A DNA stretch of 34,935 bases, taken from Paecilomyces variotii. Taxonomy: Eukaryota. The position numbers were made by a program, and so were the translations under genes. Below are positions 10,420 through 34,935 of the stretch, in pieces. Every line of letters begins with the position of its first letter. The first letter of the stretch is position 1. Below the pieces are notes generated by a model. It made no database searches. It was not told the DNA's origin and worked only from the letters and a program-made list of their open reading frames with translations. The stretch lies in NCBI GenBank assembly GCA_004022145.1, contig RCNU01000006.1, one strand, 5' to 3'.

Positions 10420-10499
10420 TACTAGGGAAAAAAAGTACCTTAGGTTCGGGTTAGGGGTACTAATTTACTATAAAAGAAGAGGTTTAATTATTAATTTTA

Positions 10500-10870
10500 G
10501 ACTTTTTACCTAGGTAAGAATAATTTTATCCCTTATAAGGGAAATAAAATCTTCTTTTACCCAGATAATAAAAACATAAAAAATCTAGAAAATAAAATTT
10601 TTCTTACCTAGGTAATAAGCAATAATAAAAATAGAATTCTTCTTATTTAGGTAATAAATAATAATAAAAATAGAATTTTTCTTACCTAAATAATAAGAGA
10701 TAATAAAAAAAGAATTTTTCTTATCTAGGTAATAAGCAATAATAAAAATAAAATAAATTCTTCTTACCTAGGTAATAAGAGATAATAAAAATAAAATTCT
10801 TTTTACCTGGGTAATAAGAGATAATAGAAAAAAAATTCTTTTTATCTTCTTTTTATTTAGATAATAAAAG
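10500..10870 (+). repeat. Sub-terminal minisatellite, ~9 units of ~39 bp (TTCTTCTTACCTAGGTAATAAGAGATAATAAAAATAGAA)
   Basis: Directly visible tandem units, each with the palindromic core TTACCTAGGTAA (variants TTACCTGGGTAA, TTACCCAGATAA). Confidence 0.9.
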
Positions 10871-11968: not shown

Positions 11969-13060
11969 ATGGCAGCAATTATAATATTATCTTTAATTAT
12001 TAATTAATAAACTAGCTATATCTAAGTAAGCTTAGTAAACTATAGATTAGATTAAGTATATCTTTAAGCAATCCCCTTTAGTTAACCTAACTAAAATCCC
12101 TGTTATTACTAAATAGCTTGCAGTAAATTAAAAACTAATAGAGCTTTTAACTAACTAATATTAAATTGCTATATTGTAATAATTCTTAGCTAACTAATCT
12201 TTAAAATTCTCTAATAATATTATTAAATTTTAATAGGCTTATAATATCTATAATAACAATATTTTATTTCTATTATATTATTACAATAGCTCTAGTAATA
12301 ATTTTTACTAACTATAATAATTATAGATAGATATACTACCCTATTAGCTTAACTGCTAATTACGCGATAACTATACTATTAATATTACCTGATAATAATA
12401 GAGATTAATAGGTTGCTCTTACTAAATATATTAAATATAATTCTGAATTTACCGATTATATCTAATATATAGTATATTAAACTATTAAACAAGAAATCCT
12501 GTAAGTCTTATATATTACTAATTGAGACAGTTTTTCTATAAATTAGTTTATTAGTTTATAGCGACATAAAGCATATTATTCTTTATATAATAAATAGTAT
12601 TTAACTATAGTTACCCAGCTATTATTTTAACTTATAACTTTTGCTTATCTAAAAGAGTTATAAATTAAATATATATATACTTGCAATTCCCTTATAAGGG
12701 AAACCCAGCTTAAATGCTATTAATATCTCCTAGTACTAGTATTCCCAGATTAATAATTTAATTAAAATAATCTATCGCGTTAGCGGATTTAAAACTTAAT
12801 AGATTTCCCTTACTAAGTAGGACTATATAACTTAAATACTCCGCGAAGAAGATAATAATACTCTTACTAAGTAATTTACCCCTAAGACTCTATAATTACT
12901 AGATATACTACTATTACTATCTAATAGCCAATATTAATAAATAGCTAAATTTCTCCTTATATAACTAGTTTTAGTAGATCTCTAAGATATCTTATATAAA
13001 ATTAATTACTATAGCATTCTCTATTAGTCGCTTTTTCTTTATATTATATAATAATATAAT
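11969..13060 (+). pseudogene. RIP-degraded intron-containing gene of unknown function
   Basis: Candidate ATG at 11969. Fungal-type introns at ~12501-12546 (GTAAGT..CTAAT..TAG) and ~12670-12733, the latter containing TTCCCTTATAAGGGAA. De-RIP reading is protein-like ('YWYSQIDDSIKTIHRVGGFKTQ..ILREED'). Boundaries and frame are uncertain. Confidence 0.4.
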
Positions 13061-13249
13061 ATAGATATATATATAGGGCAAAAAGCAATTAATAAACCCG
13101 CTATCTATTATCTCCTTTAATTACTCTTTCTATCCGGTAATAGTAAAGATATAAAATATAAGACTCTTAATTTACAAACTAAAGTTATCTAATTTTACTA
13201 GTAATATATGATTAATTTCTGTAACTATATAAAAAATATATTATTGCCT

Positions 13250-14049
13250 AAAGTAATAATTAATATAAAGAGTTATATAGACCGCTTTTCTCAACTATTT
13301 TAATATAAACTCTTATAGTTAATTTATTTATTAATTCTAATTCTATTAAAGCAGCTAGCTCTCCTAAATCTAGTAGAATAAATATAGTAATCTATAATAA
13401 TCTTAAGTTTTATTAGTAACTTTCTAATCAATTATTACTCTTATCCTAAGATCTAATATTTATTAACCTTTAATTATATTATAGTAAACAGGTAATTGTA
13501 AGCTTTATTTATATATATAATTAATAAAGAATATAAGAGACTGGGCGAATATTTAAAGGCTAAGAGAAAAGACTCTATATTAGGGGTCTCTATTAAGAAA
13601 CTAGTAGATAAATATTAGGCTATAATTAAGAATTAGACTAGAGATTAAAGCAATTAAAGAGATTAATCCCTAACTAATTTCTTTAAGTATTTATACTATA
13701 AATCTTATATAAAAGATAGTAATAGTAATAATAATAGTAATAATTATTTAATCCTATATTTATTAATATTATTAGGCATTATAATAGAACGGGATTATTA
13801 ATAGAGCTAATTAGGGGTAAAGAAAATTATTAGCTATATAATAGCAAGTTATAGTTAGGCAGCAGACTAATTCTAATAGTCTATTATCCCTCAGCATATA
13901 ATTCTACTAACTTAACATTATTAATAATTTTAATAAAAATTTCTGTAACTATATTATTAGTAATATTAGATTAATAATACCGCGCTATAAAAGAGGCTAA
14001 TTATATAAAAGATTAAGATTTTATTAGAAGGCAATAGTAGTATTTTTAC
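13250..14049 (+). pseudogene. RIP-degraded gene of unknown function, split by the hAT insertion (continues at ~22967-23030)
   Basis: De-RIP frame 'EYERLGEYLKAKRK...YDGTGLLMELIGGKE...QYRAMKEA...FVRRQWWYLY' reaches the TSD and continues in frame after it as 'QSRQGKTFIFHEKEIV'. The start is approximate. Confidence 0.45.
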
Positions 14050-14065
14050 TAGACTGGTTATATGG

Positions 14066-14260
14066 GTAATTCGGTTCGGTTCGGGGGAGGGTTAGACCGC
14101 CCATAGCGGGTTTTAGTTTAAGGCAGGAAAACTATACCTAAACCGAACCGTATTCTGGCGGTTTGGTTTAAAACCAAAAAAACCAAAATATTTGCCAAGA
14201 CCGGGCGCTAAATTAACTTAAGTTAGATTTTTCTTAAACGGTTCGGTTTAAATGGTTTAT
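14066..14260. repeat. hAT left sub-terminal (GGTTC)n / AACCG motif cluster, putative transposase-binding sites
   Basis: TTCGGTTCGGTTCGG, AAACCGAACCG, CGGTTTGGTTT and AAACGGTTCGGTTT occur in both orientations. The binding role is by analogy with Ac-type sub-terminal repeats. Confidence 0.75.
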
Positions 14261-14789
14261 ACAGTTTATAGTGTTAAAGGTATTAATATTCTATATTATT
14301 TTATATTATTATTAAATTTATATCCTTTTAAATCTATAGCTAAAAAATAGTTTAGATATAATATTATTATATTAAATCTAAAAGTATAAAGATAGTCTTT
14401 TAAGATATTATTAAATATTAATATAGATTTTAAAATAATTGTTATAGAAATATATATATATATTTATAAATTATAGTGCTAATAGAGTATTATTAAACAA
14501 TATATATAATTTATTATAAAAGCTAAAGTTATTAAACTAAAGAATAGATTTTATTTACTATTATTATTCTTAATAGAAAGTAATTTCTAGATTATTTTTT
14601 TAATAAGTTAACAGTAAAATCTATATATAATTAGTAAGTTATAATTTTTACAGAAAATATATAAATTCTATATATTTATAAAACTTACTAAAATTCTAAC
14701 TTAAGTTTAAACTACTAAGATTATATTATTCTTATAGCTATTTTTTTTTTATCTAGATACAGTTTTTAAATCAAATATTATTCTCTTAT

Positions 14790-15850
14790 AATGGATAATC
14801 CCCTAATTAAGCTATTTGATATAACTATTCTATTATAAATTGCAGATATTTATTTTGCCCCGATTTGGCTCTATTAATATGATATTATAATGATAAAATC
14901 AAGGTCTTTTTTTTTGCTAATTTTAAGAAATGATTCTGTGCTGGAAGAAGAAATTGATGTAGTTATTTTTAGCTAGGATCTTGTGGATTATAATCCCAAA
15001 TTATAAGATGCTTTCCCTTATTATTTAAGGAAGTAATTAAAGCAATCTCTTAAATATGCTAGAATTATTTGTCCTAAATTAGATCAGCTATTTATGTTTT
15101 TATTAGTGTATTAAATATAGTAAGTTAGGTTGCTTAGTATTTTTTTGCGGTAGACTATAAGTAGAAATATATATCTCGCATATTAATATTGGGCAATAAA
15201 GTTTGCCAATTTACCTTTTAAGTGGTATTAGGAAAAGAAAGAAGGTAAGAATAAATATAAGGGTGTCCCTTAATCTTATTAAGCTAAATAAGAAATATAG
15301 CAATTTTAAATAAAGTAGCTTTAAAATTAGTAAAGATATCCTTAAGAATAATCGGATTAATCTTAATGGTAACTATTGCGATCTAGGGCTAATATCTTTC
15401 TTTTCTAAAGGCGAATTGAATGAAATAGTTTTAAAAGAGAAATATTAAGATTTTATAAAGTAATAGTTAAGAGAAATTATAAGTTATTTATTATTATAAT
15501 AGCTCTAGATGCGGAGGGTGGTTTAAATAGATAATCTGAGCTAGAAAAGAGCATTTTAATTTAAGTTAGAATATACTAGAAGGTTATATTTAAAGTGTTT
15601 AGCGCTATTTTAGTTATATTACTAAATGAACTAACTATTGCCTATATATAACTTGGCCTATAGAGAAATAAGATAAGTAATAAATATTATGTGCTAATCT
15701 TTTAGTTAAGTATATCTAACTAAAACTTAGGAATCTAAAGCGCCTTTAAGATATTATTATAAGTTATTGAGAAAAAAATGCAAGCGGTAAGTTATTGTAA
15801 GATATTACTAATAGTAGAGATAATAATAAATTAAATATATAATAGACCTA
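14790..15850 (-). pseudogene. Possible second cargo gene of the hAT, unknown function
   Basis: Coding-like composition. One minus-strand de-RIP frame reads as protein ('PWIAMVTIEINPIVLEDIF...EGHPYIYSY...VNWQTLLPNIDMRDIYFY...HLAIWDYNPQDP'). No family recognised and the strand is not certain. Confidence 0.3.
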
Positions 15851-16339
15851 CTTATAATTTAACTTAAGTTAAAATTTATAAGTTTGGTCTTTAAAAAATA
15901 GGTAAGGCTTGCTTATTTAATTAGCAGTAATCTTATCAGTAATAGTTAACTAGAGTAGTAATAAAATAATTAATAAGAGAGCCTAGGGAGTTTCTAACAT
16001 TATATACCTATATATACACGATTTCTTAATTAGGTATAGTCTACATTAAGAATATATATATTATATTATTTTTTCTTTTATTGTATTTATTTCTTTTACT
16101 AAATATATTCTTTAATAAAAAGAGTAGATTTTAACCTGGTTAAAATTTGATTGAGGAACTCTAGGTAAGGAATAGTATATAGATTAGATAACAATCTAAC
16201 TTAAGTTAGATTGTTTTTAAGGATATAAGGGAAGATTATTATATATTACTATGAGTTACTAACCTTATTATAATTAAAATTCTAATTTAAGTTAAAGGCT
16301 CTATAACTTTACTTATTAAAGAGATAGTATAAATAATAA

Positions 16340-19260
16340 AAGCACCTATTAAATAATAAGGCAAACTCTCTAGGATTTTAATATAGAGAATTTAGCTAGA
16401 AGTATTAGCAAAAGAGACCTAAGGCTTATAATTATAGTAATTCTATAGAACCCTATTTAGATTTTAAGCTTATTTGGATTAATATGCTATATAGGCCGAA
16501 GGCTTATATAGCTAAGGCTAAAGTCTTTTTAATAATAAGAGATAATATAATCTGCGCAGAGCTTGAGAATAAATATCTGGGAATATTGTGTGTAGATATA
16601 AGAAAGCTTAAAATATCTTAGAAAGATATAAAATATAATTAAGATATTAATACTAACTATATTAAGAACTTAAAGAATAAGTTCTATATTAGTATATAGA
16701 GATTTAATATTAATATATAAATAAAAGCAATCCTAAGTGCTAAGGACTTTAACCTAGTATTATAGGTATATATAGCGGAATTATTAGAATTAGCAGATAT
16801 TAGTAATATCTGCAGTCTCTTAAGGCAGCGGTAGGGTAGAGATAATAACTTTTTTATCTATCTGGAGAAGTGGCTAGAAGAGCTTATATTACTAGTATTA
16901 TAAGCTAGGCAATATTACTGCATAGCTCTTCTAAAACTGCTGATTAAGTAAAAAGAAGCGGCTATTATTAAAGCTATTAATTATAAAGAAAAGATAATTA
17001 AGAGATTATAGGCTGATATATATCCCTATTTTAACTTAAGTTAGAATTTAGCTAATTGATTTATAGGTGTATCTTTAGGCTATTAATCTTTATAATAAGA
17101 TAATATTATTAGAAGTTCTTATAATATTACAATCTAATTGTAAAGATATTGCTTATATTAATATTAATAGAGAGTATATATTCTTATTTATTAAGGAGTA
17201 GGAGAAAAAACCTATAGACTAACGCAAGGAACTGCTAAAGAACTATAAAGAGTTTAAAAATTAGGCGCGCCCTATTATTAGTGTATTACTTAATTACGCA
17301 GCTTATATTATAGCCCCTCTATATAGTAATGTTTAGTTATAATATTTATAGGAGTATTTGCGGACAGCTTATAGTTACTCTTATTAGAATTATATATTAG
17401 GAGAGATAATTATAAATATAAAGCTAGATTAGGTATATTTAGGGATTTAATTTTAATTTTAATTTTCTAATTTAAGTTAGATCTAGATTACAGAGTTTAA
17501 GAAGTTTTTTAGCTTTATTAAGATAATCTTTATAGATAAATAGAGCGGAATAGTATCAGCAGAGGATTAGAGACTAATTATTAAGTATTATTATAGCGCA
17601 AGCAATTATACCTTATATATGTTATTCTTTCTTTTACGGGCAGATTATAAAAATAATAGATTTAAACTATCTCTAGATTACAGGTAGTTTAATAAATAGT
17701 TATTATTTTGCTTAAAGATTCCTGTATTATTTTTTAAGAACCCTATTTAATAACTATCTTTCTTTATGGCTCTGCCGGATAAAGTATATATATAAATATA
17801 GAAGAATGTTTTAGAGAATAAAGAACTTAAGTTCCCCTTATAATAAGTTCTAACTTAAGTTAAATATAAAAATTAATTGCAAACTAATTATTATAAGAGC
17901 TTATAGATTAATCTTAATAATAAAATTAGTCTCCTATTAAAATCTATATTAAAACATATTATATTCTAATATAATTTAGAATAGCAGTATTCTGCCGTAG
18001 CCTCTAAATGTCTCTAAAAATTCTAATAGATAAATGAACTTTAATATTCCCTCTTTTATAAGTCTAATAATATATATACTACTAAGGGCTTTGTAAAAAA
18101 ACTTACTAATAAGCTCTATGAGGACTTCCTATAGACCTAGGCAGATTTAAAGCATTATATAATAACCTTACTTAACTATAATTAGAATTAATACTAATAT
18201 CTTTTAGCTATTAGAACTATATAGCGACCTCTGCTTTTAGGATATTAAGGAATAAGATAGTTATAACTAATAGTATATATATCTTTTCTGTTTTAAGCGG
18301 CGTTATTAGGCCTGTGTCTTTTATATAACTTCTGAAGCAGTCTTACTCGACTTTAAGGGTATTATAAATTAATTTAATAATAAGAGTAAGATTATAAGTC
18401 TGGACTATTCTAACTTAAGTTAAAACTAATATAATATAGGGTAAATAACTTTCTACCTTTATTGCCTTTAACAATATTATATAGTGAGCCTAATTCTAAT
18501 ATAATAACGCAGTAAAGAACCTAAAAATCCTAAAAGTTAACTAGTATAAGGATGATTTAAAGACCTAATTTAATATTGCCGGGGCTCTATAGATATATTG
18601 ATTTATTAAAAGAAATATAATTTATATTATAAAGCTTAGCTTCTCTGAGACTAATAATCATAAGAAGGATTCTAAGGATCTTATTAAGACTAAGGTATAT
18701 ATGCCACTAATCTAACTTAAGTTAGAAATTAACCCGATCTAGGAGGAATAATATTAGTATTTATAAATATTAAGAGAGGTTGCCGATCTTTTAATTAAGT
18801 AGGACTAGGCTCTAAATATAGATAATATAAATAAATATCTGCGGCGCTTTACGCTGGACTATAATCTTAAAATTGAGAATAAATATATTGTTTAGAAGAA
18901 GTTGTATACGCCTTTTTTAACCTTATTAAACTAACTACTAATAAATAAACGCCCTTATAATAATAATAAGGAATAACACGAGCTGGAAAATTAGAAACAG
19001 CTCTGAGCTGTTATTTTTGATATCTTAAGGAAGAAATAGAAAGTATTAAAGGATTCTATAGGTAAATGGATTAATATGTCTATTCTAATTAAAGTTAGAA
19101 CAAGATTTAATTAAAATTCTAGATTGAGATGCAGAGATTAATAGGGCGAATAATATGCCTTAAAGGAATAGTACAGATAATAATAATAAAGGTAAGTTAT
19201 TTTTCCTATTAATTATATTATTAAACAGTTATAATAATATTATTATTATAAGTATAGGAA
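16340..19260 (+). pseudogene. Multi-intron cargo gene with N-terminal ParB/Srx-like (DUF3723-like) domain
   Basis: De-RIP frame: 'YLGILCVDIRKL..W...NRDI...HVKNLKNKF..GIQRFD....MKA' (~16573-16730), 'VLQAGQHRRIAL' (~16895-16930), an intron at 17018-17066, then 'YLWAVDLYD' (~17070-17096) and 'LRSN.......DGE' (~17127-17174). This motif order matches what I recall of fungal DUF3723 proteins (G.HR...W.VDLY...DGE). Further GT-AG introns at ~17433-17493, ~18394-18439, 18695-18742 and ~19062-19122. Confidence 0.6.
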
Positions 19261-19737
19261 TAGGGCTAAGTTTTTAGTTTAGGTTTGGATTTTTTAATTT
19301 AGCTCTGGGTAAGCTATCTTAATAGTGTTTGCTTAGTATATAAGAAACTAATTTAAGTTAAAAGTAAAATAATTAGGTTTTTTTTAGACTAATAATATAA
19401 TCTCTATTTCTAAATTAAATTATCTAAAAGTGGTTTTTCTTTAATAATAAGAACTTATATTATTTAGAAGCTTTATCTCTAACTTAAGTTAGAGTAGATT
19501 TTATTAATAGGACAGAAATTAGTTCTTAGGGATTTAATTTGAATTAATATAGCTGTTGCTTCTTGTTTCTATTTTAAGATAATAATTAGGGATAGAAGAG
19601 TAGGACTGCGAAGATAGGGACTATAAAATAAAAGAAAAAAATAGTATATCTTAATAATCTAGGCTAGCTCTATAATAACTTAAGATATAAATATATCTGA
19701 GTAGGAATCTAACTTAAGTTAGAATACTATAAATATT

Positions 19738-22600
19738 ATGCCGCCGCCGATACTATTATTTTTAAGTTTCTTCTTTTCTTTATTTTATTCTAATGCGGAT
19801 ATATTAGGATTATTGGGTCCTTTATTATAGTTTCAGAATTATATTATTTATACTCTTGCAGAGACCTATAAAACTCCTTTATCTTTAAATACTAATATCT
19901 AGGATATAAATTTTGATTATAATCTTATTGAACAATATAAGCCTTAATTTAAAGCTAATATTCCTAACTTAACTGAACTTAAGACAATAAGATATAGTTG
20001 AGGAAAGGCTATTATCTATCTAGCTCTTCTAGAATAGGTTTAGATTTTTAAATCTTAATAAAGTAAAATAGAGTTTATAAAATAGCAGTCTAAGTTTTAA
20101 TAGGTAAAAATAAAGATTTAATTATATATATAGTAATATTATTAAGAAGTTATAGACAGTATTTCTGGCGTCCCTTATATATAATATTTATATTACTCTA
20201 TATTTCTTTAATATCTTTATAAAGGAGGAAATGGCACCAGCTTAATAGCCGCCTATATAAAAAGGGCTATATACTGATCTAGAGATAAGACTCAGAAAAA
20301 TAGCAATATTTAAAATATATTAATTGTAAAGGTAAGAATTAGGTAATTAATATAGACTTTATTACTAATATTTTCTTTAGAAAACTTTTAATCTAATATA
20401 TATACTAGATGTATTATATAATCAGATCCTGTATTTTATTATAGGATATTGCTAATTGTTTTAAATAGTTAAATATATTTAGTTCTGCTGTATATTATAT
20501 ATAGCTGCTGGTAATTTATATCTAGAGTTATCTAACTAATATTAGATTTGAGCACGCCTTTTTAAACTTAAGGAGATTAATTATATTAAAATATTGTTAT
20601 ATTTATTAGAGTAAGGAAAGATTTCTCTAGTATTAAATTATTAGATTAGTTAAAATTAATATTCTTTTCTTGCTATAACTGGGTATTTTATTAATATAAA
20701 ATAAGTATACAGAGAAGTATTCTTAGCCTTCGATCCTGTCTATAGATTATATACTAGGAAAAACTTAGCTAAAATACTATTAAAGAATCTTTGTCAATAT
20801 AATCTATAATATTAGATTCTTGCTATTATTACAGATAATGCAAATAATAATATTACCTTAATAGCGGAGCTAGATAAAAGCCTAAAAGGTAAGCTTAAAA
20901 CAGATTTATTATTAGAAGATTTCTAAGATATAATACTAAGTTAACTTATTTTAAATCGCTATTATATTCTATATTTAGCATATATTTTATAACTTGCAAT
21001 TAATGCTTTACTAGGTAAACTCTATATTAATGCTTTTATTAATAATAGTATTAGTTAGGATATAAAAAAGGATAGAAGCCTATTATATTCTTAGGGTATC
21101 CTAATATTATTAGAAAAGGTATTCTCTATCTAACTTAAGTTAGATTAATACTAATAGATTTCTGTATAGGTTTGCAAGATTATTAGATTTATTAATGCGA
21201 GCCCTTAGTGTTAGGAATATTTTTTAATATTATAATAATTAAGTACTAGTTAGCTAAAATTATTACTTCTTAATTGCTAGATATAATAGAATTTAATATA
21301 TCTTATGCTTATATATATCCTTAAACTATATATAGTAATTGGATAATTTATTATATTATAGGCTAATAAAGATGTTTATTTTCTGATATTATCCCCTACT
21401 AAATGGTATTAGGTTAAATATCTTATTAAGTTAATCTGGCTATTCTATAATCTTACTCTTGCTATATTAAAGATAAATAGTCTATTAATTTATAGGGTTT
21501 TTGAAATCTATAATACTATCTTTAATTATCTTAATAACTGTATAGAGCGTTTAAAATTAAAAAAAGCTATATAGAAGATTTAACTCCGAGATGCTTTATC
21601 TAAAGCTTATAATAAGTTATGAACTTATTATGCTAAAATATATGAATCTTAAGGATTTATATATGTAATTGCAACGATCCTTTACCCCAGCATAAAATTT
21701 AAATATTTTAAAACTTAGGTCTGGTAAGATATAATAAAAAACTAGTATAATACTTATAAAAAGATTTTTTATAAGGTATTTTAATATTATAATAATTAAA
21801 ATCTAAATATTAAGGTATAATCGGGAACCTATTTATTAGTCTTAACCTTAGATTATATGCTTACATAATCTAAATATTGTTATTTCCCTTTAAGTACTAT
21901 TAGTATTTATTGAGAAATTCAGATTTATCTTACTAAAGGTAATATTCTATCCAATATTATATTTAAATCATATAATATTATTCTAACTTAAGTTGGATTA
22001 GGTTTATTAGAATCAGATAATATCCTTAATTATTAGAGAATTAATAAACATTAATTCCCAATTCTTATAATAATAGCCCGAGATTTTCTTATAATCCTAT
22101 TAAGTGGTATTAGTATAGAATAATTATTTAATAGTGCCCGAGATATCTGCTATTACTAATATAGCTGACTACTTCTTAATATAATTTATGCTTTAATACT
22201 TCTTATGTGTACTAAAAATTTTATTATTTAGTAGGAGTTTAAGGTAATAACTAATAATATAGATATAATACCTGATAATCGACAATTTAAAAGGGAGGAG
22301 ATTAAATCGCTAAATCTAATTAGTAATAATGAGGATATAGATAATATGTCAGAAGGAGAGATAGATATAGATAATAAAGATTATCGGATAGAGTAGTTTA
22401 GGGGTTAAGGTCTTTTAAGTATTTAAATAGATTAACCTATTATTGAGTCTATTTATAATAAAGGAGAATAATTAGATGAATTGCTTATACCTAAAGTTTT
22501 TATATATTCTTAGAGAAATGTAGTAACTATAGATAGATCTAAGTCTTCTAGTTATTACTTGCGCTAGATTAACTATATTAAAGGCTAATATAAATATTAA
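19738..22600 (+). pseudogene. hAT transposase pseudogene
   Basis: De-RIP motifs: 'KISLALDCWTS.NQHSFLAVTGYFI...YREVFLAFDPVYGSHTGKNLA' (~20618-20770), 'ITDNANNN' (~20828-20851), 'HIPCLAHILQLA' (~20963-20998), 'TRWNSTYLML' (~21281-21310), and dimerisation domain 'FPIL..MARDFL.IP.SG..VE.LF.SARDIC' (~22055-22150). Introns at ~20332-20380, 21119-21169 and 21939-22001. ATG at 19738 is a candidate start. Confidence 0.92.
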
Positions 22601-22759
22601 GAATCTAACTTAAGTTAGACTCTAATATTATATTCTAATATTATTCTACTAATTTTTAGTTAATATTTAGTAATAGATATTATAAAGAAATAAAAATCTA
22701 AATAGTTCTTAAAGATTAATAAGATTTATATAAAAATTTAGATTAATCTAAAGTAATTA

Positions 22760-22945
22760 AAAAAAACTAAAAAAATTGAATTAAACTAAAAAACCTAAAA
22801 AAACTAAACTTAAAAAAACTATATGGTGCATTATAAACTATTGGTTCAGTTTATAAAGTCTATAAACTATTCCGGTTTATAAAATTATAAACCGAATTAA
22901 ACTATAGGCGGTTCGGTTCGGTTTAGTTCGGTTTTTTTAGTTTTC
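22760..22945. repeat. hAT right sub-terminal AACCG/CGGTT motif cluster
   Basis: GCGGTTCGGTTCGGTTTAGTTCGGTTT and AAACCGAA, plus mutated AAACTA copies upstream. Confidence 0.75.
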
Positions 22946-23176
22946 TATAACTACTCTAATCTTTACTAGAGTTAATAAGGGAAGACTTTTATATTTTATA
23001 AAAAGGAAATTGTTTAATCTATATAATTATAATTATTATAGCAGTATAACTAAGATTAAATATAAGATAATTGCTTTAATATAGGTTCTAGCAAGTAGAT
23101 AATTAGAGGCTTATTTAAGATATTAAGGTCTATTATGCCGTACACATAGAGATATATATATAGAATATATATATCT

Positions 23177-23178
<2 letters not shown>

Positions 23179-23216
<38 letters not shown>
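23179..23216. repeat. (TA)19 microsatellite
   Basis: Direct reading; shorter TA runs lie just upstream. Confidence 0.95.
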
Positions 23217-23220
<4 letters not shown>

Positions 23221-23949
23221 ATATTATGCTAATATAACGCGGTTCTATATTACAATAAAAGTCTATAAAATATCCTTAAAATAAAACTGATAATTACTTA
23301 ACTATCTGAGTACTTAAATGTTTTAATTAATTATTATTAATAATGTTTACTAAGCAATTTCCTTTTAATAATATTATAATTCTCCTATATTAGCTCTAAT
23401 ATAGATAGTATTACTATATAATTAAATGTTTTCCTTTTAATAAAATCTTAGTAAACTAATATAATTCAGAAATAATAATTAACTATTATATTTAATCTAA
23501 TTCCCTTATAAGAGAATTAGGGGACCTATAAGTAGTAAGATATCCTAAGATATTTATCTATTGCGAGCCCCTGAGAAAAAAAATCTTATTATTTTAGTAT
23601 TTTTTTACTAAAAATTAATTTATAATCTTACTATTATAATAAAATGCTATACTATTAATTTTATACTATACCTTGCCGATTAAAGATATTATTAAAGAAA
23701 CTTAATAGCTAATAAGAATTAAATTAATAAGCTATTTAGGATTTTCTTAGCAGCTTTAGCTAATTTAGCGGTATTTTAAGTTTTTAATAATCTTATTCTA
23801 ATTTAAGTTAGAGAATTCTTAATAAGCAAATATATAAAAAAATATAATTACTAAAAGATATTATAATAATTATACTATTATAATTAAGGCTATATTAATA
23901 AAGTTATTTGGCCTCCGAATTATCTAGTAATATTACTAAGATTTAATAA

Positions 23950-26900
23950 GGAGTCTCTATATTAGTTACTAATAACCCCCCTAAAATATAAGATATTAAA
24001 ATTATTAATAATTTGTAGATGCCTATAATAGGCTAGATATTACTAGCAGTAGATATTAATATCTCCCTTACTACTAATAGTAATACTAATATAATAATTC
24101 TAACCTTATTTTAAATATTAGTAGAAGACATAAATTAAGACTATAAAGATCGATTAATAGCTATTTTAGAGCTTACTTTAAATTCTTTTAACTTCTTTAC
24201 TAAAGCCTTACCTAGTTAATTATTAATAGCCCTAGTATTTAAATACCTAATTAGCTTACTATTAATAAGTTAATACTCTATACCTCTAATAAACTTAATT
24301 AAGATAGAAGAGAGTAATAGTCTTATTTAGGACTTATCTAACTATAATACTCTTACTAATAAGGGTAAAGCCTATATTATAAATATTAAAAGCAATAATA
24401 AGATAATAAGCAATTTTAGTTTTAATCTATTATTTTCTAATAAATTATTTAAGCAGGAAATTAATACCCCTAATCTAGATAGAGATAATAATAATTTTTA
24501 TAATTAAATTATTGCATCTATAAACTGTAAAACTCTTATAGCAATTACCTATAAGTTTACCTATTTATTACTTTATTTAATTAAGTTATTAATTAATTAG
24601 CAGCGCTCGACTTTATTAAGATTATATCTTATCCTTTATTTAACTTTAATAAAGCCTATAATATGCTTTATAAATAATACTATATTAATTATAGCAGTAA
24701 TAATTATCTATATAGAGATTATAGATTGAAACTTTTATAAAAATCTGAGACTCTTATAAGGACCTTTTATCTTAACTATCTTTATCTTATTAATAATTTA
24801 AACTATATATTTAATTATCTTAATAGCAATAATTTTCTATTTATAATTATCTTTACCTTCTACTACTAAAACTCTAAATATTAGCTAGATATTAGTAATC
24901 TTCTTTAATACTCTATATAAGGGCGCTACTTCTAATTAGCAGAAGATTATAAATAATTTATATAGTTTATTATTATATATAGGGGAGAGTTACTAAATAA
25001 AGCTATAATAACTGCTCTCTCCCTAAAATATATATAAATACTCGCAGATTATATCTGTTTTATTTTTAAAGAAGATGCTAAACTAATTATATATAATATT
25101 TTATATAAATAGCAGATCTTAGGACTTAATTCTGTAAGACTAAGTATATAATAATAATATTATTTCTAATAAATCTTTATTAATAAATAGGAGGGGTTCT
25201 TTCTATAATAGGAGGATATTCTAGCAGATAAATAATAATATAATATAATTTTAATCTTTTATATATATGCTTTCGGAGGTAATATTAACCTTAAATTATA
25301 TAAATATAACTTTATACCTAAGACAGAAAATGTTAATTTATTTTATAAAAGAAATTAAGATAATTTTATAATAAGTCTGCCCGCAGAGCTTTATTCTTTA
25401 CTAATATTTAAAAATTAGCCTATATCTTTAGAGCCTAAAAACCTATTAATACCTTTAGAATATAAAGATCTCTTTAAAACTATCTCTAATTTTAAAGGTA
25501 ATAGCAAAGTAATTAGCTCTATCTTAAATATATAATATTAATTATACTTAGACAGTATATTAGCTATATTAGATTTTAAGTTATATAAATATATTAATAT
25601 AAAATATATCTCTTATATTTTTTATAATATTACTATTAAATTATAATCTCTCTCTTATAAATACTTATTACTTCTTATTAATCTTCTAGCAATATAGGTT
25701 AAAGAATTTAATTTTTATAAAAATAAGTGTAGTATCTATCTATAGGCAATAAATATATATTAAAATAATTGCTAAATATCTTATCTTCTATTATTTCTAT
25801 AAATAGGAGTTATTATACTAGCCGCTAAATATATAGAGCAGTTAACCTAAGCAATATAAGTAATATAAATAATTAAATTCTAGGCATATAATATATAAAA
25901 GTATATTATCTAGTTTAATAAATAAGATCTTATAGTTATATAAGGGCTTACTATATTAATAATATGCCTACTGCTATTTATTCTTACTACCTAATTAATT
26001 AAGAACTACTATTAATATACTTTAGATAAAATAATAGAGTTAAGGTTAAGTAAGCCTGAGAATATCCTATAGGAAGAAATTTACTTACCCTTATTTAAAT
26101 CCTCCTCTAGTATTAATTATAATAATTATACCTATTAGCGTAAATAAGTATAATTATAATAGGTAATAAGAAGTAATTAGTATAGTTTATGAATAGAATA
26201 ATAGTTTATAATCCCTGTAAATAAATTTACTAGGCTAAAATCCTATTATAAAATAGCCTTTATACTGATTATCTATTTTATTAATATATTCCTCTATTAT
26301 ATAGATATATAGAAGGATCTTATTTAAGAAATCTCTTATAATATTAGTCTTTCTATTTATATTCCTTATTATAATTTAAAATTAGGAGTAATTTCTCTTA
26401 TACTAATAAATATTAAATCTACTATTAATATAGTAATCTAGATATTTCCTATAATTATAATCGCGTAACTTTATTTCTTTAAAATAATTTAGCTTAGCTT
26501 TTTATAGCAATAAACTTAAAATAAAAAGCTCGCCTTATAACTTATAGCGTAAGAGGCAGTTATAATTATTAATTATTTTAGCTACTATATTATTATTAGC
26601 GACTAATATATGCTATTATATTATATTCTATACTATATTAATTCTTAAGACTATCTATATTATTACTACTAGCTCTATATAGATCTAGATATTCTTTTGC
26701 TTACCTAACAGACCCTAGTATTAAATAAATAGCTCCTTATTAGGGATTTAGATAAGCCTTAGTTAATATATCTTAAGGCATTAATTATCTATTATAGTAA
26801 GTATATAGCTTAATATATCTATTAATAAATTGCTATAGAACAATTTATTAGACTTATATTAGGAGATTTTTTTTATTATAGACTTAATATTATAATATAG

Positions 26901-27550
26901 ATAGTGATTTTTTTTAATTATTTCTATGCTATCTATATATATAATTATATTATGCGATATTTATAGCAGTAAATAAAGGGATATAGTTATAATATCTATA
27001 TTATAATTATACAGAAGATTATTAATAACTATAAAAAGGACCTATAGCTATTAATATAATAGACCTACTTAAAGATATATTCTATTTATATATATAATTA
27101 TATTAATCTTAAGCATTAAGATCTAGATTAGGCGCTAAATACTAGCTATTAAATTCTTCTATTTAACTTTGCAGAGATCTTTTAAAAGATAGCTAATAAG
27201 TCTAAAACTATATATTCTATAGATCTCTTTATCTTCTCCTAATTAAACTAGTTCTAGTACTTTTATAGCATAATAATATATATTAAATATATTATTAAAC
27301 TAGCGGCTAGGCTAAAGACTATTATTTATCTTCTCTCTATAGCTATTTAATAAAGCTATATTTAGATATTCTCTAATCAGCTAAGCAGCGGGGTATTTTA
27401 TATAAATAGTTTTAAAGAGCTATATAAAACATAGTTACCTATAGTAGCGCCTTATAAGGGTTCTATAGTTTAACTATAGGTCTATATTTTCTTATAAATA
27501 AACATGCCTAAATAGATTATATCTGCATTTAATAAATATATTGTAAAATA
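23950..27550 (+). pseudogene. Large RIP-degraded gene of unknown function
   Basis: Long plus-strand de-RIP frames read as protein: 'LAALDFIEIASHPSFDFDEAYDML' (~24597-24670), 'GRYFQLAEDYE' (~24922-24955), 'GVVIPAAKHMEQL...IKFQAYNVQKH...QGLTTL' (~25806-25958), 'KLALATYGVR' (~26526-26555). It could be more than one gene, and the boundaries are approximate. Confidence 0.45.
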
Positions 27551-28279: not shown

Positions 28280-28565
28280 TAAAAATAAGTTATTATTTAA
28301 ATAAGAAGTCTAGTTTCCTTTATAAGAGATAGTTATTACTTAGATAAAAATAATAATTAATTTCTCTTATAACAGAATAAGTTGTTATCTAGATAAGAAG
28401 CTAAAACTTTCCCTTAATAAAAGGATTATTACTTAAATAAAATTTCTCTTATAAAAGAATTATTACTTAAATAAGAATAATATTTAATTTCCCTTATAAG
28501 AGAATTATTATTTAAGTAAGAATAATATTTCCCTTATAAAAGAATTATTACCTAAATAAAAAGCT
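28280..28565 (+). repeat. Minisatellite, ~6 units of 40-47 bp (TTTCCCTTATAAGRGAA...TTATTACYTARATAAGAA)
   Basis: Visible tandem units of the same family as 29680-30425. Confidence 0.88.
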
Positions 28566-28654
28566 AGCTTAATCTTATAGTCTTAGAAACTATTATTAGA
28601 TTTTTAGCATTATCTATATCTTTACCTCCTTTAATATTACCTGATTATAGTAAT

Positions 28655-29679: not shown

Positions 29680-30425
29680 ATAACTTTCTCTTATAAGGGA
29701 ATAATTATTACCCTAATAAAAAGTAATATTTCTCTTATAAGGGAATAAGGTATTATAAATAAGTAAGATTTTCCTTATAAGAGAATAATTATTACTTAAG
29801 TAAGAAGCGATATTTCCCTTATAAAAGAATAAATTATTACCTAAATAAGAAGCTAGCTTTCTCTTATAAGGGAATAATTATTACTTAAGTAAGAAGCGAT
29901 ATTTTTCTTATAAGGGAATAATTATTACCTAAGTAAGAAGTAATATTTCCCTTATAAAGGAATAAGTTGTTACCTAAGTAAAAAGCTAGCTTTCTCTTAT
30001 AAAAAAATAATTATTACCTAAATAAGAAGCGATATTTCCCTTATAAAAGAATAATTATTACTTAAGTAAAAAGCTATATTTCCCTTATAAAGGAATAATT
30101 ATTACCCTAATAAGAAGCTATATTTCCCTTATAAAGAAATAAGTTATTACTTAAGTAAAAAGTAATATTTCCTTTATAAGGGAATAATTATTACCTTAAT
30201 AAAAAGCTATATTTCCCTTATAAGAGAATAAGTTATTACCTAAGTAAGAAGCTAGCTTTCTCTTATAAGGGAATAAATTATTACCTAAGTAAGAAGCTAG
30301 CTTTCCCTTATAAGGGAATAAGTTATTACCTAAATAAAAAGCAATATTTCCCTTATATTATTTAAGTAAGAAGCAATATTTCCCTTATAAGGGAATAATT
30401 ATTATCTGAGTAAAAAGCTAGCTTT
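29680..30425 (+). repeat. Minisatellite, ~17 units of ~44 bp (TTTCCCTTATAAGGGAATAATTATTACCTAAGTAAGAAGCGATA)
   Basis: Directly visible. Each unit carries two palindromic cores, TTCCCTTATAAGGGAA and TTACCTARGTAA. Confidence 0.95.
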
Positions 30426-30829: not shown

Positions 30830-32670
30830 ATTAATATAATATAGCCCTATAAATAATTACTGCTATTATATTTAATATGCCTTATTTTTATAATAGATTA
30901 CCTTAGCTAATCTAAGAGATCTTAAGCTAATATAGAGAAGACCTTTAGAGAACCTCTTCTCCTTAATATTATAACTATAAGCCGCAGGCTAATTCTTCTA
31001 AGAGTAAGTATTTTTAATCTCCTCTTCTTATATTATATTAATTGTAAATAGCTATAGATCTTATTATAGTCTCTTTTAAGCTTAATAATAAACTAGACCT
31101 AAAGAAGCTAATCTATAGGATTAAAAATCTTCTCCTTAAACTTCATTATATTATTATAGCATTTAAGAGTATACTAGAATAATTATCTATACTTTTAAAT
31201 AATAGATAAAAACTTTTTTATTTTTTCTTGCTATATTTTACTATATAAATATTTCTTTTTTAAATAGATTTTTCTTAATAAATATAGGTAATTAATTAGG
31301 CGGGATAATTTTTATTAGCTTTTTAATATTTTATCTAGCTATAGCCTCTTTCCCTATTATGTTTATTACTTAATTATTAACTATATCTATTAATTAAGAG
31401 AATAATTCTAAAGAAGTTATAGATACCTAATTAAATAAGTCCTCTTTATATATATAATATCGCTTAAGTTAAGACTTTAGATAAAACTAATTATATATAT
31501 TTATATTTATAGGGAGTAGGGCCCTGTATTCTATTAGCTATATTAATTATATTATTCTTATATTATTTTATAGTATATAATAACTTAAGGGTATATCCTT
31601 AAGGGCTAAATATACTAAATATTTAGATAAAAATAGCTTAGCGCACTATTAAGTTATGCAGCTTAAACTTAAACCCTAATAATTAGGAATTAAATAAATA
31701 TATAAGAGGTAGTTAATAAGAAAGAATTATTTCCCTTATTAGAGAAATTAGATAGAATAAGAAAAAGTTATTTCCCTTATAAGAGAAAAGCAAATAATCC
31801 TATTAATAATTAAAATGATTAATTATTTAGTATAAGAAATACTTATATAATTATTCCTACTATCTAGGAATATTATAGGTATTATTATTATACTTATTAT
31901 ATATATAATTTTCTCTTCCTCTTACTATCTTCGCCTACTCCTTATTACAGATAATATTAAGTTATTAATATTTTTATTTATAAGGTAATTTCCCCTATAA
32001 AAGAATTTATATAATATTAAAATCTAGAGTAATAATATAGATCTATCTATTATGCTCTTAAAGATAGTAAATAAATAATTAAACTAGACCTAATTATTCC
32101 TAAGTAAGATTAAATTAAAACTGTCTAAATCCCCTATAAAATCATTTTATTCCTTATCCTCTAAAGCATCTATTAAATCTATATTAAATTCTAGGATTAT
32201 ATCTTCTATAATTAGGGTAATATAGCTAATTTTAAGATTAGTTATAGAGAGGCTTTAAAAGATATCCTTATAAATTAATAATAGGTAGAGAATAATCTAA
32301 TATTAGTTTTACAGCTGCTAGGCTAAGAATAATAATATATTATTAGATTTCTATATCTTTAATAGCTAATATCTGTTTAAATAAGCTTAAATTATAATAC
32401 AGTTAAATCGACTTATAGGTTTATATTAGACTAGCTAGTATAAGAAGATATATTTAATAATTATATAATAAAAGCATATACTAAATATATTTATCTCTAA
32501 TTCTTGCTGTACTAATAATTAGTAACCTATATATATAACTTATTAGATTATATACTATAATTCTACTATAAATTATATAGTTTTTAGAACTCTATATATA
32601 TTTTGCGTTAAAGATATTCTCCTATAGCTATTTTAAGGCTATTAATACTACTATAGATATTATTTATCTG
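30830..32670 (-). pseudogene. Possible RIP-degraded gene(s), unknown function
   Basis: A minus-strand acceptor (TTTTTTTGCAG, ~32668-32679) and protein-like de-RIP frames ('LEMAMGEYLQRK', 'FELHDLIVRQAIL', 'KLMKIVPPDQLP'). No family recognised. Confidence 0.3.
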
Positions 32671-34841: not shown

Positions 34842-34935
34842 TTAGGGTTTAGGGTTTAGGGTTTAGGGTTTTAGGGTTTTAGGGTGAAGGTTTTAGGGTT
34901 TTAGGGTTTTAGGGTTTAGGGTTTAGGGTTTAGGG
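34842..34935 (+). repeat. Telomeric repeat tract (TTTAGGG / TTTTAGGG), right chromosome end
   Basis: One TTAGGG, six TTTAGGG, five TTTTAGGG and one TGAAGG unit. The G-rich strand runs 5'->3' towards the end of the sequence. Confidence 0.95.

Follow-up and report, generated by a model that had tools for sequence, protein, structure and literature searches.

Introduction

To our knowledge, systems by which a transposon recognizes its own DNA have so far been documented mainly for the VANDAL elements of plants. hAT elements are usually regarded as carrying a single gene, with short subterminal transposase-binding repeats (AAACGG in Ac/Ds, and those of Hermes) as part of their normal anatomy, and the parS site of bacteria is a 16-bp palindrome. 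In Arabidopsis, the VANC21 protein of VANDAL21 localizes to the introns, intergenic and terminal non-coding regions that have accumulated its motif (PMC5735166). The DGQHR domain, which combines a QR pair, a DGQHR pentapeptide and an FxxxN motif, has been linked to the ParB/Srx fold (PMC4619093), and within the DGQHR/ParB-Srx group DndB binds palindromic inverted repeats and autoregulates (PMC4507180). Here we analyze a stretch of 34,935 nucleotides from the fungus Paecilomyces variotii (contig RCNU01000006.1 of assembly GCA_004022145.1; hereafter the window), of which positions 14050-22958 are a copy, inactivated by repeat-induced point mutation (RIP), of a two-gene hAT transposon family. This element carries, through both its transposase gene and a second, cargo gene (gene 1), copies of the 16-bp palindrome TCTAACTTAAGTTAGA, which we read as candidate dimer-binding DNA sites for an element-encoded protein, resembling the motif accumulation of VANDAL/VANC and with a rough probability of 0.45.

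Like VANDAL21 with VANC21 (PMC5735166), this DNA transposon pairs its transposase with an accessory gene and has a short element-specific motif in intronic, intergenic and terminal DNA. This likeness is one of layout; no sequence relation to VANC was noticed, although no search aimed at one was made. VANDAL21 is Mutator-like whereas the present element is a hAT, and the host defense is RNA-directed methylation there and RIP here, to which this copy has been lost. Moreover, the VANC motif has 9 bp, is not a palindrome and spreads through tandem repeats, whereas here we observe a 16-bp palindrome, one per short intron, without tandem arrays. Compared with ParB-parS, the locus has no ParA-like partner and a eukaryotic host, and its sites are spread over 9 kb rather than gathered in one centromere-like cluster. 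The counterpart of the Ac/Ds and Hermes repeats is a GGTTCGG motif near both ends, and in departure from usual hAT anatomy the palindrome is a second motif that runs through the whole interior, including the introns of both genes.

Results

A two-gene hAT element inactivated by RIP

The element begins and ends in 13-bp terminal inverted repeats (left, 14050-14062 on the plus strand, TAGACTGGTTATA; right, 22946-22958 on the minus strand, reverse complement TAGAGTAGTTATA) that are identical at 11 of 13 positions, in keeping with the short inverted ends of hAT transposons. It is flanked by target-site duplications of 8 bp, the length typical of hAT insertions, at 14042-14049 (ATTTTTAC) and 22959-22966 (ATCTTTAC); these agree at 7 of 8 positions and their sole difference is a C/T transition. 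GGTTCGG occurs six times in the window, five times within 200 bp of the element ends, which is the usual location of hAT subterminal repeats. On the left the GGTTCGG/TTCGGTT/CCGAACC motifs lie within 14070-14248 (at 14070-14084, 14141-14149 and 14240-14248), and on the right a motif search placed GGTTCGG/TTCGGTT at 22890-22933.

The RIP-mutated transposase gene occupies 19737-22396 on the plus strand, with approximate start and end. A 583-aa single-frame reading matches P0010 at E 3.6e-35, with 97% of the query covered. P0010 is a 600-aa hAT transposase of Penicillium digitatum with the domains PF27041, PF27039 and PF05699, and tblastn of it on the window returns 20591-21724 and 22055-22360. 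The hAT C-terminal dimerization domain PF05699 scores 18.8 bits on the mutated reading (at about 22019-22147), below its cut-off of 21.4; despite this, the P0010 match and the agreement of tblastn identify the gene as a hAT transposase. In the three forward frames of the element Pfam gave this weak hAT domain only, and NCBIfam gave nothing. The 8.9-kb hAT with inverted repeats and target-site duplication that an earlier sequence-only reading had proposed is thus confirmed at both ends and in its transposase.

A 16-bp palindrome dispersed through the element

Allowing up to two mismatches, TCTAACTTAAGTTAGA has 18 matches in the window, 17 of them inside the element and one at 23797, whereas shuffling the whole window 100 times gave 0.24 matches on average and never more than 2. 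These counts cover the 34.9-kb window, in which the flanks amount to about 26 kb, all RIP relics. Six of the 17 in-element copies are perfect, five have one mismatch and six have two. Relaxing the limit to three mismatches raises the number in the window to 25, against 2.87 expected, and adds three within the element: 19347, likely a real degraded copy, 20531, which is coding, and 17965, which is doubtful. The total is therefore about 18 copies in the element, approximately one per 0.5 kb, in line with the roughly 18 dispersed copies of the sequence-only reading. In fact every one of the most frequent 12- and 14-mers in the element is part of TCTAACTTAAGTTAGA, and no other word in it is repeated comparably. 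The arms extend beyond 10-11 bp in two copies only, even with RIP-type mismatches allowed, and the half-sites showed no enrichment when tested. An exact unit of 16 bp without enriched half-sites is easier to reconcile with a dimer site than with a long hairpin.

Two properties of the motif bear on where it can persist. It holds the stops TAG, TAA and TAA over its three frames and, being palindromic, reads identically on the other strand, so that all six frames are closed and it can persist within a gene only in an intron. It also contains no CpA or TpG dinucleotides, and RIP would consequently spare it more than most sequence; the palindrome may thus be visible today partly through its survival of RIP. 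Thirteen of the 17 mismatched letters in the in-element copies are C>T or G>A. Approximately one quarter of the pre-RIP CpA+TpG content, which we assume to have been about 12.5% of dinucleotides, survives in the element, and given this survival and the lack of CpA/TpG in the motif its A/T letters are probably ancestral. The motif is moreover present in an unmutated copy, where the short open reading frame P0014 runs into the first mapped intron of gene 1 as F-N-L-S-stop (ADVCPHFNLS and then the stop).

Outside the window, a full-text literature search for the 14-mer core of the palindrome returned no match. The exact 16-mer was present at at least 120 metagenome loci, and none of the matches listed showed, by blastn or tblastn, a relation to the element. 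Loci with two or three 16-mer sites proved to be a bacterial intergenic repeat beside kinase and response-regulator genes, which we set aside as a look-elsewhere coincidence. This repeat family (L020, L044, L066, L092, L096, L102, L106 and L116) is longer than 110 bp with the exact 16-mer at its center, and at L092 it flanks a gene for a 2084-aa kinase/GAF/PAS/histidine-kinase protein and a LuxR-type response regulator, again taken as coincidence.

Gene 1 and the intronic placement of the palindrome

A phmmer search of 1.84 billion representatives with a 1200-residue query from frame 2 gave three matches only, all copies of the same family: two hypothetical P. variotii proteins and one unnamed metagenome protein (JGI/IMG). 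Clusters of these matches led to P0013 (KAJ9287551.1), a stop-free hypothetical P. variotii protein of 778 aa that by tblastn is colinear with 16493-19160 of the window. Splicing the window by hand gives 2298 nt in frame, which align without gaps to P0013 residues 1-766 with 452 of 766 identical. The window's reading contains 63 stops, every one at a P0013 Trp (25), Gln (25) or Arg (13). This is exactly the signature of RIP, and it argues that the gene model is sound. The gene 1 product is at least 778 aa long and contains an AGQHR motif.

The P0013-mapped part of gene 1, based on tblastn and the spliced reading, spans 16484-19163 on the plus strand, with exons by P0013 alignment at 16484-17017, 17067-17432, 17481-17842, 17897-18158, 18208-18393, 18440-18694, 18743-19075 and about 19125-19163. 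The seven introns between them, all on the plus strand, measure 49, 48, 54, 49, 46, 48 and about 49 nt, and six of the seven hold the palindrome; conversely, all six palindromes within 16484-19163 are intronic. Intron I1 (17018-17066) has its palindrome at 17030-17045 and is the one into which P0014 reads in the unmutated copy. In I2 (17433-17480) the palindrome (17466-17481) forms the 3' end and provides the acceptor AG, and in I3 (17843-17896) it abuts the donor hexamer (17849-17864). I5 (18394-18439) carries it at 18409-18424, I6 (18695-18742) has a perfect copy at 18711-18726, and I7 (19076-19124) one at 19084-19099; the junctions of I7 are unsure, as the last P0013 high-scoring pair is weak (E 5.1). 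The remaining intron, I4 (18159-18207), into which P0016 reads, lacks the canonical palindrome and has CTTAACTATAATTAGA with five mismatches. Several donor Gs are A in the window, which fits a TpG>TpA change, and P0014-P0017, short unnamed open reading frames from an 8.4-kb public contig that run from exon into intron of the unmutated copy, show canonical donors, with the motif itself at I1.

A similar arrangement is found in the transposase gene, on the same strand. Intron T2 (21119-21169, 51 nt) contains a perfect palindrome at 21129-21144 and corresponds to a 17-codon in-frame gap against P0010. Intron T3 (21939-22001, 63 nt, GTAATA..TTAG) has its palindrome at 21982-21997, leaves the reading frame intact up to the C-terminal hAT domain, and falls in a stretch that is not aligned to P0010. 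A further likely transposase intron without palindrome, at 20327-20380, was recognized by inspection of the sequence alone. Combined with the P0013 mapping, which identifies the cargo as a multi-exon gene on the transposase strand, these copies in the introns of both genes bear out the proposal that the palindrome is common to the cargo and transposase halves. They also support the idea that the cargo is a long-term resident of the element, for which the multi-copy family with gene 1 and the intact, spliced P. variotii version speak as well. New here is that the palindromes within genes are intronic, which fits the VANC analogy yet opens the alternative that a family of introns has multiplied.

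Palindromes outside the mapped introns

The remaining copies lie in terminal, upstream, intergenic and downstream DNA. At the left end, a copy with two mismatches (14212-14227) sits in non-coding DNA among the subterminal repeats, and another (14695-14710, two mismatches) precedes the first coding-like ATG, at 14793, by about 83 nt. The 1.7 kb from there to the mapped part of gene 1 (14793-16483, plus strand) shows coding-like frames, with low stop density in single frames, and may represent N-terminal exons of gene 1 or a third gene; Pfam and NCBIfam gave no match to it and we found no homologue. It holds four palindromes, two of them with two mismatches (15555-15570 and 15858-15873). The third, a perfect copy at 16195-16210 with arms to 13 bp, is intron-like in having GTAAGG 30 nt upstream, and the fourth, at 16281-16296 with two mismatches, falls in a candidate intron of 48 nt (16251-16298), both without homologue support. 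Between the genes are the degraded copy at 19347-19362 (three mismatches) and two perfect copies at 19478-19493 and 19708-19723, the latter ending 13 nt short of the ATG at 19737, the putative start of the transposase. The last, at 22604-22619, is also perfect and lies downstream of the transposase reading frame.

Possible relation of the gene 1 protein to DGQHR and DUF3723 proteins

The sequence-only reading had assigned GQHR, WAVDLY and DGE motifs to the cargo and labeled it ParB/DUF3723-like. Read literally, the window has ARQYY and AINLY at the first two of these motifs, whereas P0013 has GQHR at 142-145, WAIDLY at 182-187 and DGE at 212-214, so that the reversal of RIP implicit in that reading was essentially right. 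More fully, P0013 contains QRQ at 115-117, AGQHR at 141-145 (four of the five DGQHR residues, with Ala for Asp) and LWAIDLY at 181-187; a match to FxxxN is not clear. Gene 1 resembles the DndB/DGQHR domain (PMC4619093) in its QR...AGQHR arrangement, and differs from the ParB/DndB group in a profile score that is sub-threshold and unstable.

As to DUF3723, its genes are accessory genes of Starships, of unknown function, that travel with mobile elements, including in P. variotii (PMC9156397, 10.1101/2025.02.28.640899, PMC11162782). The language-model neighbors of the query sequences P0004 and P0011 are DUF3723 clusters of Ascomycota. In the ESM Atlas feature search, which by its own rating is a lead only and involves no alignment, the top match of P0011 scored 0.95 with 169 shared features and 22% of its cluster carrying PF12520, the second scored 0.94 with 78% of its cluster carrying PF12520, and P0004 reached 0.93, again with DUF3723 clusters; the shared features across P0004 and P0011 numbered 149-169. 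The carriers differ, as a Starship is a giant element with a tyrosine recombinase whereas here we have a 9-kb hAT. On P0011, a copy partly mutated by RIP, the match to the DGQHR model TIGR03187 begins right at GQHR and reaches 22 bits (E 1.1e-4), and on P0004 the model scored 19.4 bits. Pfam gave chance-level matches at most on P0004, P0005, P0011 and P0012, PADLOC a single chance-level match on P0011, and sequence searches of the PDB nothing relevant. A full-text literature search found no paper joining DUF3723 with ParB, and four in which DUF3723 and hAT both occur. The ParB/DUF3723 label has in its favor the DUF3723 neighbors and the AGQHR motif and falls short in Pfam and in the instability of TIGR03187, and we regard it as weakly supported.

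Other copies of the family

At the protein level, the relatives of gene 1 within the public collections that were searched are P. variotii hypothetical proteins and one unnamed metagenome protein only. A word-index search with P0004 gave no match among longer proteins and, for those of comparable length, family copies only (E up to 10), and a metagenome scan with P0011 found no relative. Within the window, a self-comparison with default scoring and tblastn both returned no second copy of the family; comparing the element to the window with lax scoring produced alignments of only about 57%, which we discarded as noise.

Public contigs of four sequencing runs place thousands of pieces on the element at 85-99% identity, with differences that are almost all transitions. 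Summed contig depth, which is not a copy number, is about twofold over 19990-22662 relative to the gene 1 half. One contig of run X1 fuses 14227 to 19363, joining the palindrome at 14212 to the degraded one at 19347 with the whole of gene 1 deleted, and contigs of two runs leave the window sequence directly after the end of a palindrome at 22619. Derivatives without gene 1 thus exist, and palindromes sometimes form their joints, as expected from recombination or repair between 16-bp repeats. Further joints or loose ends of contigs lie at or near palindromes at 15855, 18702, 21120 and 22619. An RNA-library run (X20) contained no intron-removing joint; with mutated copies and a library in which DNA may be present, this is uninformative. 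The annotated P. variotii proteins P0005, P0007 and P0008 track gene 1 to the point matching window position 18928 and then continue differently (..YYRKFVPHFSAIARPL..), in what we take to be a segment resembling Ty3/gypsy pol, suggesting a retrotransposon insertion in that gene 1 copy.

Genomic setting and a neighboring relic element

The window is a subtelomeric graveyard of RIP-mutated fungal repeats. Its G+C content is 14-26% throughout, an open reading frame scan of 13000-24000 found no stop-free frame of 80 codons, and the RIP indices of the element are 1.29 (TpA/ApT) and 0.56 ((CpA+TpG)/(ApC+GpT)), with values lower still in the flanks. The window terminates in approximately 13 copies of a TTAGGG-type telomere repeat (34842-34935; TRF consensus TTAGGGT), which places the region as subtelomeric.

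Another relic, into which the hAT was probably inserted, has palindromes of its own on both sides of it (10500-10850, 12687, 23501, 28320-28600, 29685-30420, 31731-31787 and 34350). Its word TTCCCTTATAAGGGAA has 23 matches at up to two mismatches against 0.06 expected, and CTTACCTAGGTAAG recurs as well, together with its RIP form CTTACTTAAGTAAG. Both TTCCCTTATAAGGGAA and CTTACCTAGGTAAG are found largely in 39- and 44-bp tandem arrays that are subterminal in the neighboring relic. Relative to the 14-bp core of the hAT word, CTTACCTAGGTAAG differs at a single pair of symmetric positions, to which its form before RIP adds the central pair. Just before these arrays, at 10443, lies the sole GGTTCGG away from the hAT ends, in a stretch (CTAGGG..GGTTCGGGTTAGGGG) that may be an end of the neighboring element.

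Discussion

We suggest, tentatively and at somewhat short of even odds, that the palindrome is a putative DNA-level cis element that would be read by a dimer of an element-encoded protein, more likely the gene 1 product, with the transposase as the alternative. With nearly all of its minimal introns (46-54 nt) holding a site, the element would present a dense and element-specific array through which such a protein could find and cover its whole length, possibly for anti-silencing as with VANC, for autoregulation at the two gene starts, or for bringing the element together for transposition. Several lines of evidence point this way. A short motif specific to the element has accumulated in its non-coding DNA, and the intronic placement fits, as a site that destroys every reading frame can live only in introns. 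Copies also outside introns (14212, 19708 and 22604) argue for a role at the DNA level rather than in splicing, and the varying offset within the intron speaks against a fixed splicing signal. Gene 1 is kept with the element, as seen in the multi-copy family and the annotated, intact and spliced gene. In favor we also count the DUF3723 neighbors of gene 1 and its QR...AGQHR likeness combined with the palindrome binding of DndB. Additional support comes from the palindrome arrays of the neighboring relic, which indicate that short palindromic repeats resembling protein sites recur in the transposons of this genome.

Other observations weigh against such an array and its reader. One copy with a single mismatch, at 23797-23812, lies 840 bp beyond the element, in DNA (22959-27000) whose six frames gave no Pfam match. 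The six of seven gene 1 introns that share the motif are nearly identical in length, which a shared intron origin would explain equally well. The motif also includes CTAAC, the branch-site word of fungi, and it supplies the acceptor AG of I2. On the protein side, AGQHR has Ala at the nearly invariant Asp of the DGQHR family. Pfam at E up to 10 assigned no family to intact P0013, PF12520 included, and TIGR03187 reached only 7.4 bits on it (E 3.3) against a cut-off of 58.85 bits. The changes from P0013 to P0011 run in the RIP direction, and for this reason we do not trust the higher score on P0011. AlphaFold2 models had a mean pLDDT (predicted local distance difference test) of 44.7 for P0011 with a shallow alignment and 37.2 for P0013 alone, too poor for a fold search.

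The alternative closest to these objections is that the palindrome is the conserved core of introns that multiplied within the element, in the manner of introners or symmetrical sister introns, and not a protein site. Two transposase introns carry the motif in addition to the six of gene 1, over lengths of 46-63 nt, and the motif-less I4 still aligns well with I1 (z 5.3). Proliferating fungal intron families with internal symmetry have been described (PMC8469720, PMC3609843), the likeness lying in many short introns with a common and internally symmetric sequence (PMC8469720). However, beyond the 16-mer and the splice signals no shared sequence is visible among the introns, the motif begins anywhere from 6 to 33 nt after the donor, and its arms end at 8-13 bp, compared with inverted repeats of 45-55 nt in the symmetrical introns described. 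The three extra-intronic copies named above, at the least, have no plausible intron around them. Introners, furthermore, spread over host genes, whereas the copies seen here, in a comparison confined to the window and its family copies, are in one transposon family. For these reasons we consider a multiplying intron family unlikely. If the symmetry of the motif acted instead in RNA, as a splicing signal or a small pre-mRNA hairpin, it would explain why CTAAC stands on both strands with AG acceptors, CTAAC being followed within the motif by TTAAG and TTAG, and why the I2 acceptor implied by P0013 is the motif's own AG. In I1, I3, I5, I6 and T2, though, the acceptors lie 15-32 nt downstream, with branch-like GCTAAT and ACTAAT nearer to them. 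RNA signals have no need of palindromy, copies occur in subterminal and downstream DNA, and a hairpin of 6 bp around a 4-nt loop would be weak, all of which makes a role in RNA quite improbable to us.

The same enrichment and layout would also be produced if the palindrome were the site of a host factor, that is a transcription, chromatin or insulator protein recruited by the element without any reader of its own. Copies near both putative gene starts (14695 and 19708) are compatible with this, and nothing ties the motif directly to the gene 1 protein. Against it, the 26 kb of flanks hold one further copy only, a weak test as the flanks are all RIP relics, and a host factor leaves unexplained why the second gene travels with the element; we judge it rather improbable. 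An artefact, through convergence of RIP on an AT-rich word or chance in low-complexity DNA, might be suspected in so AT-rich and heavily mutated a window. It is close to refuted, as none of the 100 shuffles reached three matches, most copies retain the C and G positions of the motif, the unmutated copy reads through the motif, and flanking relics of equal composition contain one copy only. A more specific form of the self-recognition array, in which gene 1 encodes a ParB/DGQHR-like, DUF3723-related protein that would load from 16-bp parS-like sites, present in almost all introns, along the 9-kb element and so mark it as self for anti-silencing or assembly for transposition, is in our view doubtful.

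A hAT family that retains a large second gene and in which nearly every intron and spacer holds the same exact palindrome suggests that an element-encoded self-recognition system may also operate in a fungus. It further illustrates how a motif that is lethal to any reading frame can be kept inside genes by residing in minimal introns. DUF3723 genes are the commonest accessory genes of Starships, and this small element, with its candidate target and with intact copies in P. variotii strains, would make their function directly testable. Should the ParB/DGQHR-like loading be true, the DUF3723 genes of Starships would also be readers of element-specific DNA words.

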